A DNA stretch of 28,735 bases from a virus (taxonomy: Duplodnaviria > Heunggongvirae > Uroviricota > Caudoviricetes): the IMG/VR virus record IMGVR_UViG_2585427791_000002; one strand, written 5' to 3'. The notes beneath the pieces were generated by a model. The model made no database searches. It was not told the DNA's origin and saw only the letters and a program-made list of their open reading frames with translations. Positions 1 through 28,735 of the stretch are shown piece after piece. The position numbers and the translations under genes were made by a program. Numbering within the stretch: position 1 is the stretch's first letter; every line of letters begins with the position of its first letter.

Positions 1-53
1 GCAATAGTGGACACGCGGCTAAGTGAGTAAACTCTCAGTCAGAGGTGACTCAC

Positions 54-353
54 ATGACAAAAACAGTATCAACCAGTAAAAAACCCCGTAAACAGCATTC
101 GCCTGAATTTCGCAGTGAAGCCCTGAAGCTTGCTGAACGCATCGGTGTTACTGCCGCAGCCCGTGAACTCAGCCTGTATGAATCACAACTCTACAACTGG
201 CGCAGTAAACAGCAAAATCAGCAGACGTCTTCTGAACGTGAACTGGAGATGTCTACCGAGATTGCACGTCTCAAACGCCAGCTGGCAGAACGGGATGAAG
301 AGCTGGCTATCCTCCAAAAGGCCGCGACATACTTCGCGAAGCGCCTGAAATGA
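54..353 (+). CDS. insE: IS3 transposase OrfA (InsE), helix-turn-helix DNA-binding subunit
   Basis: Translation [56 protein letters not shown]... matches remembered IS3 InsE. ATG at 54 preceded by AGAGG; the track ORF at 45 begins on an in-frame GTG. Confidence 0.9.
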
Positions 354-1216
354 AGTATGTCTTTATTGAAAAACATCAGGCTGAGTTCAGCATCAAAGCA
401 ATGTGCCGCGTGCTCCGGGTGGCCCGCAGCGGCTGGTATACGTGGTGTCAGCGGCGGACAAGGATAAGCACGCGTCAGCAGTTCCGCCAACACTGCGACA
501 GCGTTGTCCTCGCGGCTTTTACCCGGTCAAAACAGCGTTACGGTGCCCCACGCCTGACGGATGAACTGCGTGCTCAGGGTTACCCCTTTAACGTAAAAAC
601 CGTGGCGGCAAGCCTGCGCCGTCAGGGACTGAGGGCAAAGGCCTCCCGGAAGTTCAGCCCGGTCAGCTACCGCGCACACGGCCTGCCTGTGTCAGAAAAT
701 CTGTTGGAGCAGGATTTTTACGCCAGTGGCCCGAACCAGAAGTGGGCAGGAGACATCACGTACTTACGTACAGATGAAGGCTGGCTGTATCTGGCAGTGG
801 TCATTGACCTGTGGTCACGTGCCGTTATTGGCTGGTCAATGTCGCCACGCATGACGGCGCAACTGGCCTGCGATGCCCTGCAGATGGCGCTGTGGCGGCG
901 TAAGAGGCCCCGGAACGTTATCGTTCACACGGACCGTGGAGGCCAGTACTGTTCAGCAGATTATCAGGCGCAACTGAAGCGGCATAATCTGCGTGGAAGT
1001 ATGAGCGCAAAAGGTTGCTGCTACGATAATGCCTGCGTGGAAAGCTTCTTTCATTCGCTGAAAGTGGAATGTATCCATGGAGAACACTTTATCAGCCGGG
1101 AAATAATGCGGGCAACGGTGTTTAATTATATCGAATGTGATTACAATCGGTGGCGGCGGCACAGTTGGTGTGGCGGCCTCAGTCCGGAACAATTTGAAAA
1201 CAAGAACCTCGCTTAG
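350..1216 (+). CDS. insF: IS3 transposase OrfB (InsF), DDE catalytic domain; normally expressed as an OrfAB fusion by -1 frameshift
   Basis: 288 aa ORF matching remembered IS3 InsF (…[31 protein letters not shown]…[10 protein letters not shown]…), overlapping the orfA stop (ATGA); a CCAAAAGG stretch typical of the IS3 slip site lies near the orfA end. Confidence 0.9.
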
Positions 1217-1243
1217 GCCTGTGTCCATATTACGTGGGTAGGA

Positions 1244-3217
1244 TCAATCAGCACCAGGTGCGGATATTGACAGGCCATCTTCGATAAACGCAAAAACAGG
1301 GAAAGCAGCGCCATCAACATAGAACACAGAGCGCAAATCATCGCCCTTATTACTCATCATTATTGAGTGGATGGCTCGTTCATTGTTTTGATATTGCCAG
1401 AACATTCCATAAGCATAACGCCCCCTGTCAGTCCAGCCACCAGGCATAACAAATCCGTTAAACTCGCAGTTATTCATCGGATCGCCTGCGGTTCGCGTTG
1501 CCGTGGTGATAATGACCCTTGATGCCAGTTCGCTTACTGAGCCAGCAGAACGCATAACAACAACAGGGTAATATTTTCCAGATGTTGCACCTGCAGGAGC
1601 GTTAACCCGCACATAACGCATACCACGCTTATCAGCAAAGTCTGTTTTACTGACCGCGTTAATGTTGTTCAGGAAGCGTCCCTTATCGGGTATATCAGCG
1701 CCGTTCTGGTCTTTCTGCAGACGTTTCTCTGCATTGTCATAGGCTGATTTTACTGCCTTTGGCGTTGCCGCCAGCGTTTCAGACGTACTGTTGGTCGCAC
1801 TGCTGAGCTGTACTATCCCCTTTTTCGTCGTGCTCGCATCCTCAAGCGCCACGGCGGATGCAATATCCTCTGCCCGTTTTGCCGCTGTCTCGGCGCGCGT
1901 TGCCGCGGATTCCGCCGTACTTTTGCTCTGTGCTGCCGCCGTCGCACTGCCAGCTGCCTCTGTCGCCTTCGTGGATGCTGTCGTGGCGCTGCCCTTCGCT
2001 GCTGACGCCTGTCTGGTCGCCTCATCTTTTGAAGCAGACGCCGATGAGGCCGATGACGCCGCCGAACTGGCTGACGATGCGGCAGCCGTTTTTGAGGATT
2101 CTGCGCTGGTTTCCGACGCTTTCGCGTTCGTTTCGGATGTCTTCGCTGCGGAAGCAGAACTCGCTGCTGCGCTGGCCTGTTCAGTGGCTTCGCCAGCCTT
2201 CGTTGTGGCTGTTGAAGCGGATGATGCGGCGCTTTCTGCCGATTTTCCGGCGGCGGTGGCACTGGCTGAGGCCTGCCCGGCACTTGTTGACGCGGCGCTG
2301 GCAGATGATGCAGCCGCTGTTTTTGAGCCTGCCGCAGCTGAGGCGCTCTGTCCCGCTGCCGTCTCAGAAGACTTAGCGTTCGTCTCGGACGTTTTTGCCG
2401 CCTTCGCGGAATTTCCTGCCGCCGTTGCCGAGGAAGTTGCGCTACTGGCGCTCGAGGATGCGTTCGTTTCTGATGATTTCGCTGCCTCTTTTGAGGCCGC
2501 CGCATCCCGGGCTGAGGTGGCAGCTTCTGACGCTTTCGTGGTCGCGGTGGATGCAGAAGTGGCTGCTGATTGTTGTGACGCTGCGGCATTCGTTTCTGAC
2601 GTTTTCGCGGCACTGGCACTGGTAGCTGCCGCGCTTTTTGAGGACTCTGCAGCAGCAGCACTTTTCGATGCTTCACTGGCCTTTGTTGATGCCGTTCCTG
2701 CGCTGGAAGACGCTGACTGAGCCGACGACGCGGCCTGTCCGGCTGACGTGCTGGCTGCGCGTGCTGAGCCTGCAGCATCAGTCGCATGGGTTGCCGCCTC
2801 ACGGGCTGATGTGCCGGCATCGCCGGCTGACTTCTTCGCGGCTGCCGTGTTCTGTGCCACCGCGGACGCGTTACGCGCCACCTCTTCCACCATCAGCTCA
2901 AAACGGCGCAGTGCCTCTGGCCGGGCATCATCCTCCGTCATGGCACCGAGAAAATCATTCAGCGTACCGGGTCGGGAGTCTTCATACACGGTGATGGTCC
3001 CGGCATGTGACGGCGGGAATCCTTCCACCAACAGAATAACGCTGTACTGACCGTACTCAACGTCCATGCTGTAACGCCCGGCTTCATCCGGATTTTCTGA
3101 GGCCACCGTGTTCACCACCACCGTGGTGCTGTTACGTTTTGCTTTCAGCTGGATTGTGCAGTTCTGTACCGGTTTTCCTTTGCCGTCTTTCAGTACACCT
3201 GAAATCTTTACTGCCAT
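1244..3217 (-). CDS. stf: Side tail fibre protein (lambda Stf-like), 3' end interrupted by IS3; the stop codon is supplied by the IS3 terminus
   Basis: N-terminus MAVKISGVLKDGKGKPVQNCTIQLKAKRNSTTVVVNTV… matches lambda Stf, followed by the characteristic Ala/Ser/Thr-rich region. The reading frame runs directly into the IS3 right end at 1244-1246. Track start at 3223 is a GTG; ATG at 3217 matches the lambda start. Confidence 0.8.
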   Translation of the reverse strand: MAVKISGVLKDGKGKPVQNCTIQLKAKRNSTTVVVNTVASENPDEAGRYSMDVEYGQYSVILLVEGFPPSHAGTITVYEDSRPGTLNDFLGAMTEDDARPEALRRFELMVEEVARNASAVAQNTAAAKKSAGDAGTSAREAATHATDAAGSARAASTSAGQAASSAQSASSSAGTASTKASEASKSAAAAESSKSAAATSASAAKTSETNAAASQQSAATSASTATTKASEAATSARDAAASKEAAKSSETNASSSASSATSSATAAGNSAKAAKTSETNAKSSETAAGQSASAAAGSKTAAASSASAASTSAGQASASATAAGKSAESAASSASTATTKAGEATEQASAAASSASAAKTSETNAKASETSAESSKTAAASSASSAASSASSASASKDEATRQASAAKGSATTASTKATEAAGSATAAAQSKSTAESAATRAETAAKRAEDIASAVALEDASTTKKGIVQLSSATNSTSETLAATPKAVKSAYDNAEKRLQKDQNGADIPDKGRFLNNINAVSKTDFADKRGMRYVRVNAPAGATSGKYYPVVVMRSAGSVSELASRVIITTATRTAGDPMNNCEFNGFVMPGGWTDRGRYAYGMFWQYQNNERAIHSIMMSNKGDDLRSVFYVDGAAFPVFAFIEDGLSISAPGAD

Positions 3218-3225
3218 ATTCACCC

Positions 3226-3281: not shown

Positions 3282-3881
3282 TCAGAATTTATAACCGACA
3301 CCCACGATGAAACCGTCAGTGCGCCAGTCACCACTGCCGGAGCCTTCATAAGCAATATCAATGGCCACGGATTCGGTCGGGTTAAACTGCACGCCAGCCC
3401 CCCACGCCAGAGACGTGTTGCTGTGGCGACCGTCATCACTTCCGGTCAGCACATCGTGCGTTTTCCCCTTGTTGTCAGTTACGCGGAGATAATCCCCGAA
3501 GAAAGTCGACACACGGCTGTAAGCCACACCCGCCATCGCATACACGCTGAACCATTCATTCACGCGCACAGACGGCCCCGCCATTACGCTGAACCAGCGG
3601 TTACGCACGGAATCTTCATGCCAGCGGGTATCGCTGTAATGCGTTTTTTGCTCATCTTCAGCGTTGGCATAACTGAATGACGTAATCAGCCCCAGCGTGT
3701 CCGTAAACTCATAACGGTATTTCACGTTAATCCCGTTCAGATTATCGCTGCCGGGAGCGTTCGTACGGGCATGAAGATACCCTGCGCTCAGTGTGGCCTG
3801 CTGCTCAGACGCCCATGCAGGCGCACCGGATACGGCCAGACAGATGGCTGTGGACAAAATGGCTGCACAAACTTTACGCAT
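3282..3881 (-). CDS. lom: Lom outer-membrane protein (Ail/Lom/OmpX family), a lambda accessory gene
   Basis: 199 aa; signal peptide (…AVSGAPAWA) and C-terminal …[11 protein letters not shown] beta-barrel signature; near-identical to remembered lambda Lom; sits between J and stf as in lambda. Confidence 0.93.
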
Positions 3882-3948: not shown

Positions 3949-6900
3949 TCAGCTGATACTGATGCCTGCGGTGGCTTTCTTCATCACCACAACCAGCAAA
4001 TCGCTGATACTTGCTGTGGGATGCCAGTCATTTACCAGCCATGCTGACACCGAAAACTCCAGCGTCATGTGGCCGTGACCAGCTGGCATATCAATAACAC
4101 CACTGTAAATCAGCGTATTATCCAGCGCGGTACGGTTATAAATTTCAGCACCATTTTTCTTCACTATCAGGCGGCATGAGGAGTAAATATCAGTATGCTC
4201 TCTCTCATGTTTAGCACCGCTGAATGCCACCGCCGGAATAACAATCTGCCGGTCAAACGGCTGATCGTCATAAATCCTGACGGTAATGGTCCCTGATGGC
4301 CACCGCTCCGGTGCCCGGGAGTCCCGCGGGAAAGCCTTACCCACTGTTTTGACAATATCGCCTTCAATCTGGTTGGCTGACAGTTTCCCTTTAATCTGAC
4401 AGTTTTCATTTATCGTAACGTTGTTGAGCGTCCCGGCGTTCGCATTCACACTGCCACTGATATCTGCATTTTTAGCGGTCAGCTTTCCGTCCGGTGTCAG
4501 GGAAAATGCAGGAGGATTACCGCCGCTGGTAATGGTGGGAGCCGTCAGATATTTCAGGAACACTTCATTCATGAATATCTGATCACCCTGACCAACAAAC
4601 ATCGGTTTTGTGTTGCCATTTGCAGGATTAATCATCGCAATCCTGTCTGCCGCCAGCAGTACCTGACTCTGCATGCCGTCGGGGGTGTTCTCAATACCGG
4701 CACCGATACCCGCAATATAAAGGCGTCCGTCCTGCATCTGCTGCAGCTTCACAGCCCACATGCTGTTCAGATTATTATTTGTATCAACCTGAACCTTCTG
4801 TATCTGCTGGATCGCTGCACTCTGGTCTTCCAGTTTCTTATTGACGGTCTGTGTGATTTCATTGCTGACATCCGTAATGGATGTCCTGATTTCAGCCAGG
4901 TCAGGCGCAAGCTGACCGTTATCAATCTGCGTCCACAGCTCCTGAGCCAGATGGGTTTTCCCTATCTCGCCTTTGAAAAAATCCAGATAGCCGGATGCGT
5001 CATCACTCGGCTGACCAACAGCCTCCACGAATGCCGATTTGCCAACGGTGTTCACACTGCGAACGTAAAAATAATAATTATGGCCCGGCCTGATATTGAT
5101 ACTGGCGGCTATCCAGTACAGCGCCGTGCCAAGATAGCGTGCTGTGGTTTCAACCTGCCTGATATCCGCAATCCGCTTTTCCGAGAACCAGAACTCAAAC
5201 TGTACCGTCGGATCATAAACCGCAAGATGCGGCGTGGCGGTTATCTGAAAATAGCCCGGCGTCAGCTCAATCCGCGACGGCGCTGCCGGTGCGGCAATCC
5301 GGAACGATACCGACGCCGGATCGCCCTGCTGCCCCCACGCATTTACCGCCCGGACTGTCAGCCTGTAGTTCCCCAGAGCCAGTTGTGTGAAGCGGTAAGT
5401 GGTTTCCGTCGTCCGGGCCGTGCTGACCAGCCGCTCACTGCCGTCATCCGCTGCCACGGTCAGGCGAAGCAGGAAGCTCACGCCCTTCACCACCTTCGGC
5501 GTGTCCCAGCGGGCCAGCACCTGGTATTCCCCGCTGTCTGCAGTGACTTCTGCGGTCAGGTGCTGCACCGCTGGCGGCGTGACACCGTTCACCGTGCCAC
5601 TCTGTTCGCCGTCAAAGTGCGCCCCGTTATCCACGATGACCTCTTTTTCCGGCACATGCTGCACGGCGGTGATGGCATACGTGCCGTCGTCGTTCTCACG
5701 GATACTCACGCAGCGGAACAGTCGCTGGCGCAGCCTCGGCAGCTTCAGCCCCCATACGCTGTATCCGGCAACACCGTCAGGAACACGGCTCACTTTCACC
5801 TTCACGCCGTCGGTGACGGACTGAACCTCCACGCTGACCGGATTGCCACTTCCGTCAACCAGGCTTATCAGCGTGGTACCGGAGGATGGCAGCGTGATTT
5901 CACGGTCAAGCGTCAGCGTCCGGGTCAGGCTGTTCACCGCCAGCACACGACCACCGGTGCTGATACCGGCATAGTCATCATCACAGATTTCAATAACATC
6001 GCCCGGTACATGGCGAAGCCCTTCTGCGCCGACGCTGAAATCCACGGTCTGCGTTTCCAGCAGCTCCGTTTTAATCAGCCACAGCCCGGCTCGGTGTGCC
6101 TGCCCCCGGCTGGTACAGCCAAAGGCATCCATCTTCGTGACATTACGACCGTAACGGGCAATGGCCTGCGTGTCCTCCACAAGCTCTGTCGCCGTCTCCC
6201 AGCCGTTATCCGGGTCAATCCAGTTCACCTCAACGGCATTATGGCGGTCCTTCAGGGCGCTGAAGCTGTAGCGGAACGGCGCGCCATCATCCGGCATCAC
6301 CACATTACTGCGGTTATAGGTCCACACCTTATCCGACGGTCGGTCCTGCACGAACGTCAGCGTCTGCCCGTTCCATACCGGCATACAGCGCATCGCCGAG
6401 CAGAAATCACTGAGCACATCCCACGCCTTGCGCTGTGTGGTCAGCCAGGCATTACAGGTGATGCGCGGCTCCGTGCTGCCAAAGCCGTCCGGCACCGACT
6501 GGTCGCAGTACTGGCCGATGACATACAGCGCCCATTTATCCACATCTGCCGCACCAAGACGTTTCCCCATGCCGTAGCGCGGGTGGGTCAGCATATCCCA
6601 CAGACACCAGGCCATGTTGTTGCTGTATGCCGGTTTAAACGTTCCGTCCCAGATACCGCTGTATTGCCGCGTCTGCGGGTTATAATTCGACGGCACCTGC
6701 AGAATACGCCCGCGCAGATGATAATTACGGCTCACCTGCTGGCTGCCGAACTGCTCCGAATCCACCTGTACGCCGACCAGTGCCGTGTTCGGGTAGCACT
6801 GTTTCACATCGATGATTTCGGTGTATGACGACCAGAGCGTTTTGTTCTGCAGCTGGTCTGTGGTACTGTCCGGCGTCATTCTGCGCATCCGGATATTAAA

Positions 6901-7428
6901 CGGGCGCGGCGGCAGGTTATCCACCACCACCGAGGCCAGATACTGCGAGGTGGTTTTGCCCTTAATGGTGATGTCTTTTTCCGTCACCCAGCCACCATTA
7001 CGCTGTATCTGAACCAGCAGGCGAACTTCCGACGGATTCCGGTCCCCCTTTGAGGTGGTTTCCACCAGTGCCTGCACACCGAAGGTAAAGCGCAGTCGGT
7101 CGATGTTTGCCGACGTGATGGCGCGGGTGATCGGCGTGTCGTATTTCACTTCCGTACCCAACACCGTCTCGGAGCCGGAGGATTCAAATCCCTCCGGCGG
7201 AGTCTGCTCCTGCTCACCGGCCCGGAACACCACCGTGACGCCGGAGATATTGGTATTCCCCTCACTGTCCAGCACCGGCGTACTGTTCAGCAGCACGCTT
7301 TTTAATCCCTCCACCGGACCTTCAATCGGCCCTTCGCTGATGGCATCGATCACACTCAGCAACTGCGTGGTCTTCAGGTTGTCCTTCGCTTCGCGCGGAG
7401 TATGCCCCTTACTGCTTCCTTTACCCAT
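3949..7428 (-). CDS. J: Tail tip / host specificity protein J (central tail fibre)
   Basis: 1159 aa; N-terminal about 850 aa match remembered lambda gpJ ([19 protein letters not shown]…); the C-terminal receptor-binding portion differs from lambda. Confidence 0.96.
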
Positions 7429-25391: not shown

Positions 25392-26419
<1,028 letters not shown>

Positions 26420-26730
26420 AGATATTTATGATGAGGACGCTCGTGCTTATTGGCAGGATTTTCAATCTTAAAGGAGTACTGACGCTGCAGATAAGACTCA
26501 ACTTTTCTGACAATTTTTCTGCTACTTCCAGGAAGACTTGCCGGACGCTCATTCTGGCTGCTGCCTCATAAAACTCCAGCGTAGCTCCTTCAACACGGTC
26601 CATGGCGACATCCAGGCCAAAAATTTCACCGTCAAAGCGTTCTTTGTCCTGTAAGGCTACAGTTACCGTAACTTTATTCTCAAAATTACGGACTCCTTTC
26701 ACAACCAGTTCATAGTCTTGAGTCATTGGA

Positions 26731-28212: not shown

Positions 28213-28439
28213 TCTGTCCCCTAAAATGACAGGAATTGTCAAAAACTTTGACTACAAAAGCAGCAAAGGTCTTATATTCCCATCCGATGGCGTATCGATG
28301 CCCAGCTTCACGTTTCAGCTCTCAATCTTCGAGATGCAGAAGAAATTACCACAGGATTACGCGTGGAATTTTGCTGGATAAATGGTTCGCGTGGACCTTC
28401 AACTGCCAATGTTTATCCCGGGATGAGATTCAATATCTC
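28213..28439 (+). pseudogene. cspF: Decayed cspF-like cold-shock gene (start codon lost, internal frameshift), ending at the IS1 junction
   Basis: After AAGGAG the frame reads (L)[25 protein letters not shown], then shifts; a second frame continues …[40 protein letters not shown]…, together resembling a CspF-type protein; the expected ATG position is CTG. Confidence 0.55.
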
Positions 28440-28735
28440 GGTAATGACTCCAACTTATTGATAGTGTTTTATGTTCAGATAATGCCCGATGACTTTGTCA
28501 TGCAGCTCCACCGATTTTGAGAACGACAGTGACTTCCTGCCCAGCCTTGCCAGATGCTGCCTCAGATTCAGGTTATGCCGCTCAATGCGCTGCGTATATC
28601 GCTTGCTGATAACGTGCAGTTCTCCCTTCAGGCGTGATTCATAAAGCGGCCAGCCATCTGTCATCCATACCACGACCTCAAAGGCCGACAGCAGGCCCAG
28701 AAGACGCTCCAGCGTGGCCAGCGTGCGTTCACCGA
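28440..28735 (-). mobile_element. IS1: IS1-family insertion sequence (divergent variant), terminal repeat at 28440 and continuing past the window end
   Basis: Terminus GGTAATGACTCCAACTTATTGATAGTG… matches the IS1 inverted repeat; the adjacent minus-strand ORF matches the InsB C-terminus. Confidence 0.88.
28455..28735 (-). CDS. insB: IS1 transposase InsB, C-terminal part (5' end outside the window)
   Basis: …[75 protein letters not shown]; the frame stays open to the window edge; a few substitutions relative to canonical IS1 InsB as I recall it. Confidence 0.88.

Follow-up and report, generated by a model that had tools for sequence, protein, structure and literature searches.

In Escherichia coli K-12, the cryptic prophage Qin has the gene order ydfJ'-ydfK-pinQ-tfaQ-stfQ'...nohA-ynfO-ydfO-gnsB-ynfN-cspI-rzpQ-rrrQ-essQ-cspB-cspF. 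Phage lambda can dispense with side tail fibres, its primary adsorption taking place through J. Hendrix and Duda are said to have described, in 1992, laboratory lambda without side tail fibres and the stf frameshift of lambda PaPa. According to the literature consulted here, lambda PaPa carries a mutation in stf, recombination takes place between lambda and both Qin and Rac through their common stf/tfa homology, and prophages with insertion sequences in life-cycle genes are treated as defective (PMC3945230). Searches of the literature for the present assembly accession, or for IS3 together with the side tail fibre, returned nothing specific. As an exact look-up of the 657-aa Stf product showed, the stretch of DNA analysed here (the window; 28,735 bp) is the whole draft contig JOSE01000034.1 of assembly GCA_000713535.1, which starts in IS3 and ends in IS1, as contigs commonly do where assembly breaks at repeated sequences. 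The results reported below make it very likely that a copy of IS3 jumped into the side tail fibre gene, stf, and interrupted it after codon 657, the gene belonging to a Qin-like lambdoid prophage that occupies the ydfJ locus.

The IS3 sequence at the beginning of the window was identical, over all of its length (1246/1246 nt), to the corresponding part of a complete 1258-bp copy in E. coli strain 6409, while the first 12 nt of the element (TGATCTTACCCA) fall outside the contig end. According to the list of open reading frames, the two IS3 genes overlap, orfA ending at 353 and orfB starting at 350, and the identical copy of strain 6409 is labelled in RefSeq as "IS3 family transposase, programmed frameshift" over the equivalent of window positions 54-1216. 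Direct reading of the sequence revealed that the right terminus of the element (...GGGTAGGATCA) ends exactly at position 1246. Of the imperfect terminal inverted repeats expected for IS3 (5'-TG...CA-3'), the right end is present in the window, and the left tip was seen only in complete copies. The features of the window are listed in Table 1.

Table 1. Position of the IS3 element, the disrupted stf gene and neighbouring features in the 28,735-bp window (strand left empty where none is assigned).
Feature	Position	Strand	Description and evidence
IS3 (nt 13-1258 of the 1258-bp element)	1..1246	+	Identical in all 1246 nt to the complete copy of strain 6409
IS3 orfA (HTH)	54..353	+	Pfam HTH_Tnp_1; fused to orfB via a -1 programmed frameshift
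IS3 orfB (DDE/rve catalytic domain)	350..1216	+	Pfam rve, rve_2, rve_3, HTH_21
TGA stop of the truncated stf	1244..1246	-	Last 3 bases of the IS3 right inverted repeat; read directly
Predicted 3-bp target-site duplication (ATC)	1247..1249		One copy visible; the other would be left of IS3
stf, 5' portion (codons 1-657 of 1116)	1247..3217	-	N-terminal tail-attachment domain, Ala/Ser-rich shaft and middle region; 100% identical to stfR of NZ_AP023286.1
lom (Ail/Lom outer-membrane protein)	3282..3881	-	Pfam Ail_Lom, E = 2e-124; annotation; upstream neighbour of stf
Gene J (tail tip / host specificity protein)	3949..7428	-	Pfam families; annotation
IS1 fragment at the other contig end	28438..28735		Matches three IS1 copies in the relative; InsB C-terminal ORF; abuts frameshifted cspF

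The open reading frame of stf, as called mechanically on the minus strand, spans 1244-3223, and the annotation of homologues places its start at the ATG at 3217 rather than at 3223. From this start, 657 native codons (3217-1247) are followed directly by the TGA at 1246-1244. As IS3 contributes this TGA with its final three bases, Stf gains no amino acid from the element, and the protein ends in ...SAPGAD. The initial annotation had proposed that the stf frame runs without a native stop into the right terminus of IS3 at about 1246 and uses a TGA of the element, and this was confirmed to the base; its remark that no tfa gene lies between stf and IS3 also holds for the window. Pfam analysis assigned residues 1-134 of Stf to the prophage tail fibre N-terminal domain (PF08400, E = 4e-72). 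The distal region with the trimerisation domain, the collar and the fibre repeats, the C-terminal tip and the adjacent tfa are absent from the window reading frame and present with the uninterrupted allele. Tandem Repeats Finder reported a single weak array, located in the Ala/Ser-rich shaft of stf; tandem repetition does not account for the truncation.

The uninterrupted allele was found in the complete genome of strain 2018-18.25PC (NZ_AP023286.1; pig, Viet Nam), whose gap-free alignment with window positions 1247-28735 spans 27,489 bp and has 8 mismatches. The alignment begins at 1247, the base directly after the end of IS3, and extends through the IS1 junction at the other end of the window. 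In this genome IS3 is absent from stf, the gene is annotated as stfR with 1116 codons, and tfa (191 aa, with a 1-nt overlap) comes next, ahead of pinQ, ydfK, ynfT and a truncated ydfJ. The empty site reads ...AACAACGAG/ATCAGCACC..., or in a longer reading ...AACAACGAG/ATCAGCACCAGG... (the slash marking the insertion point), and the uninterrupted site across the junction is also given as ...AACAACGAGATCAGCACC...; the encoded protein continues across this point as ...APGAD/LVVNDTTYKF... for 459 further codons. Since a near-identical genome without IS3 reads stf straight across the site, the stop used in the window is derived from IS3. IS3 entered between codons 657 and 658, at 59% of the 1116-codon stf, and 459 residues (41%) were cut off. 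The insertion claimed in the initial annotation therefore stands, whereas its placement at the 3' end of stf does not, the site being after codon 657 of 1116; the expectation that the receptor-binding tip of Stf would be missing or displaced is supported by the empty-site gene, which reads across and leads on to tfa and pinQ. The 657-codon reading frame is a truncated member of Stf, i.e., a pseudogene.

Genomic context analyses revealed that J, lom and stf are arranged in the lambda order, all on the minus strand, and that the late region of the window is complete and lambda-like, comprising nohA/terminase, portal, protease, decoration and capsid proteins, tail genes, J, lom and stf. The window also contains the Qin accessory genes ynfO, ydfO, gnsB, ynfN, cspI, rzpQ/rrrQ/essD, cspB and cspF. 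At the spot in NZ_AP023286.1 equivalent to the IS1 end of the window, an IS1 transposase is annotated; this IS1 abuts the frameshifted cspF, and beyond it the annotation lists a hypothetical gene, a further IS1 copy and, next to rspA, a truncated oxidoreductase gene. Genes for a late-gene antiterminator, immunity, replication or an integrase are missing from the annotation beyond IS1 in NZ_AP023286.1. The prophage of this relative is a Qin-like remnant whose early region was lost next to IS1, and the source strain has very probably lost this region as well, given that the window ends at this IS1 junction too.

No match spanning the IS3/stf junction of the window was obtained among 5,426 complete E. 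coli genomes, and the junction was likewise not found in the GTDB representative genomes. In the gene-position index, the exact 657-aa truncated product was recorded on only 2 contigs, representing the same contig for 2 samples. The absence of the junction elsewhere and the small distance to the genome with the empty site (8 SNPs in 27.5 kb) indicate a recent and strain-specific transposition, as judged from these sequence comparisons.

IS3 was also found in the stf/tfa genes of other E. coli. Twelve complete genomes showed a match spanning IS3 and the 5' part of stf, and four loci were examined. In strain 6409, with nine more genomes of equal match span, IS3 interrupts another stf allele and is flanked by the duplication CAC, and the far side of the element holds the stf remnant, tfaQ and pinQ; in strain 6409, the TGA of IS3 likewise closes the stf frame. 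In strain J6, IS3 lies in tfa (duplication TCT), in strain 23CRST009 near the end of stf in a prophage adjoining ybhB (ATC), and in strain EC190486 in stf (TAT). All of these insertions (4/4) are simple, with perfect 3-bp duplications. The orientation of IS3 shared among the loci is a bias from how the search joins pieces and not a finding. No common target sequence was apparent among the duplications CAC, TCT, ATC and TAT and the predicted ATC of the window.

The insertion in the window and those in the four other lineages are independent IS3 events, which gives five independent insertions in stf/tfa in total. It seems improbable that the stf-tfa module is a preferred or positively selected target of IS3; if it were, loss of the fibre or uncoupling of the tip module would favour the host or the phage. 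A rough estimate suggests that chance plus neutrality accounts for the five insertions, because stf/tfa occupies a few kb per prophage, there are several prophages per genome, and IS3 events are numerous across the 5,426 genomes.

The truncated frame could in principle belong to a naturally short variant of Stf with its own stop codon at this point, a reading for which the open frame ending at 1244 speaks and nothing else. Its stop, however, consists of IS3 bases, and the 100%-identical allele has no native stop at that residue and runs 459 codons further. In full-length Stf, Pfam analysis placed a Gp34_trimer domain (663-762), a Collar domain (907-954) and Phage_fiber repeats (near residue 1002) beyond the break, and identified the Tfa downstream of the uninterrupted stf as Caudo_TAP, a tail-fibre assembly chaperone. 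The lost 459 aa occur at full length with 95% identity in Escherichia phage 2H10, and the module is present at 87-90% identity in mEp332, Kati, ev099, PhiR34_1 and Chlobot. As the lost module occurs at full length in isolated lambdoid phages, the long form of Stf is, on this comparison, the functional architecture. A naturally short Stf was rejected on the IS3-derived stop, the continuing identical allele and the long form carried by isolated phages.

The arrangement on the far side of IS3 was considered by analogy. Since the four other insertions are simple with perfect 3-bp duplications, a simple insertion is also expected in the window, and IS3 is likely to be flanked by the predicted ATC duplication, the rest of stf, as the initial annotation had expected, and tfa lying beyond the element. 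The left junction would then read ...GTATCATTAACAACGAGATC/TGATCTTACCCAGCAATAGTGG, the left end of IS3 (TGATCTTACCCAGCAATAG...) being preceded by ...ATTAACAACGAGATC, with the stf side also given as ...AACAACGAGATC. Alternatively, IS3 could mark a rearrangement in which an adjacent deletion or IS3-IS3 recombination removed or relocated the 3' part of stf, tfa and pinQ, so that unrelated DNA would lie leftward. The window ends inside IS3, with the far side outside the contig, and the same prophage in the relative has IS1-associated deletions. In EC190486, about 1.6 kb of unannotated sequence separates IS3 from an stf 5' fragment annotated as lacking its C-terminus, yet this insertion, like the other comparable ones (4/4), keeps its 3-bp duplication. 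Possible remnant reading frames were guessed, starting at the TTG of codon 703 (414 aa), the ATG of codon 724 (393 aa) or the GTG of codon 813 (304 aa), or as contig-edge forms at or inside the left end of IS3, and the 393- and 414-aa forms were not found for this assembly. The 393-aa form is present under accessions of other strains, without a recorded gene position, whereas the 414-aa form, a form starting at the junction and one that reads out of the IS3 end were not in the protein collection. This result has little weight, given that the same collection also misses the 657-aa product (and a 659-aa form), the 657-aa form being on record on the 2 contigs of the gene-position index; moreover, remnants of this kind are usually labelled as pseudogenes or interrupted by the end of a contig, which makes their absence weak evidence. 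The event is also very recent, and the 8 SNPs that separate the window from the empty-site genome leave little time for a second event. Overall, a rearrangement at IS3 is unlikely. Still far less credible is an assembly artefact, in which the repeated IS3 would have been mis-joined to the stf flank while stf is intact in the strain. The contig is indeed a draft with repeats at both ends (IS3 and IS1), and its junction is shared by no other genome, but the breakpoint coincides exactly with the canonical final base of IS3 and the match to the empty site resumes at the next base, a pattern that marks a genuine transposition and not a chance mis-join, and the same contig is on record for 2 samples.

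For a transposition of IS3 into stf, the element would have entered by the standard copy-out/paste-in route with a 3-bp duplication, as expected from knowledge of the IS3 family and from the four examples. Given how IS3 is oriented and in which frame it is met, stf terminates at the TGA that closes the right end, and what is left of the gene encodes no more than the N-terminal attachment domain, the Ala/Ser-rich shaft and a portion of the middle region. Cut off from stf are 459 aa, comprising the Gp34-like trimerisation domain, the collar domain, the GAHTHS fibre repeats and the C-terminal tip, as well as the tfa chaperone gene; the stf remnant, tfa and pinQ would lie directly beyond IS3 with the ATC duplication. 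By analogy with lambda PaPa, a truncated product without the trimerisation and Tfa-dependent tip region would not form a functional fibre. The remnant prophage is unable to produce phage by itself, as far as the early-region loss seen in the relative applies to the source strain. Because the prophage had very probably already lost its early and regulatory half, the disruption of stf is most simply explained as selectively neutral decay.

These results have consequences mainly for annotation, beyond which their significance is little. The 657-codon reading frame should be labelled as an IS3-disrupted stf pseudogene instead of a complete "tail fibre N-terminal domain protein". As a recent strain-specific marker, the insertion distinguishes the source strain from the near-clonal 2018-18.25PC, and it adds one more documented step in the decay of Qin-like prophages. 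Prophage remnants of this type remain able to pass stf/tfa sequence to infecting lambdoid phages through recombination (PMC3945230), and an IS3 inside the stf/tfa module would interrupt the homology tract for such recombination. The type of event is already known, being an ordinary IS disruption in a decaying prophage, and no new kind of element is involved.

Compared with the IS3 reference (IS3 family, E. coli, 1258 bp), the element of the window shows the same sequence over 1246 nt, the same orfA/orfB frameshift layout and, of the TG...CA termini, the right end; the element itself is without differences, and the insertion site alone is new, being absent from the 5,426 complete genomes. The insertions of strains 6409, J6, 23CRST009 and EC190486 share with that of the window the element, the gene module and the relative orientation, and differ from it in their positions, stf alleles and, in part, prophages. 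The stf frameshift of lambda PaPa results in the same split of the N-terminal part from the distal receptor-binding part, although the lesion in the window is an IS insertion in a prophage remnant, while that of PaPa is a 1-bp frameshift in a viable phage. With the cryptic prophage Qin of K-12, the prophage shares the chromosomal locus (as seen in the relative) and the accessory genes; in contrast to K-12 Qin, however, the version in the window keeps the complete set of head and tail genes from nohA to stf, which K-12 Qin has lost, and it carries another set of lesions, namely IS3 in stf and IS1 at cspF.

In other Escherichia coli prophages, IS3 was found to have entered stf or tfa on four separate occasions, and each of the four IS3 copies was flanked by a perfect 3-bp target duplication (CAC, TCT, ATC, and TAT). 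In strain 6409, the stf frame was likewise ended by the IS3 TGA. Disruption of the gene was further indicated by P0002, a C-terminal fragment of 393 amino acids (MIGGEY…) that is identical to residues 724–1116 of the Stf encoded at L004, a locus with an uninterrupted stf. This fragment has been deposited as a protein of its own under several accessions (e.g., SQM82175.1) and on six contigs, and because exactly these 393 amino acids were deposited separately, the same stf allele is broken upstream of codon 724 in further strains too. The gene-position records contained no entry for the fragment. The 657-aa truncated Stf (window 1247–3217) was found on two contigs in the gene-position index, whereas it had no entry in the collection behind the cluster look-up, the two resources differing in the gene calls that they cover. 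The long ORFs predicted within the stf shaft and gene J are mechanical calls overlapping real genes; the three of them are most likely by-products of composition, without any support as genes.

Coordinates of the features discussed (window positions unless a locus is named)
Feature	Position	Strand or frame	Remarks
IS3, strain 6409 (L002)	5989–7246		
IS3, L005, L006, and L007	2989–4246 (each)		
309-aa ORF	within 1791–2820	plus	inside Ala/Ser-rich stf shaft
335-aa ORF	within 1791–2820	alternative frame	inside Ala/Ser-rich stf shaft
625-aa ORF	4951–6828	antisense	inside gene J
90-aa ORF	25442–25714	other frame	within Rz-like gene rzpQ (25392–25889)
ORF	26337–26726		between lysozyme (rrrQ) and holin; DUF1327 pseudogene, frameshifted and truncated, per annotation of the relative
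IS1 fragment	28438–28735		right contig end, inside region 28214–28735

At the right end of the window, a frameshifted cspF adjoins the IS1 fragment. In the near-clonal relative (NZ_AP023286.1), this IS1 is followed, according to the annotation, by a second IS1 and a truncated oxidoreductase adjoining rspA, and the genes annotated past it include none for an antiterminator, immunity, replication, or an integrase; the entire early and regulatory half of the relative's prophage is lost.

Of the only eight SNPs between the window and the relative, two (26483 and 26553) are located in the ORF that the relative's annotation gives as a DUF1327 pseudogene. The 90-aa ORF embedded in rzpQ is absent from the relative's annotation, and its placement is as expected of a spanin gene of the Rz1/rzoQ type.
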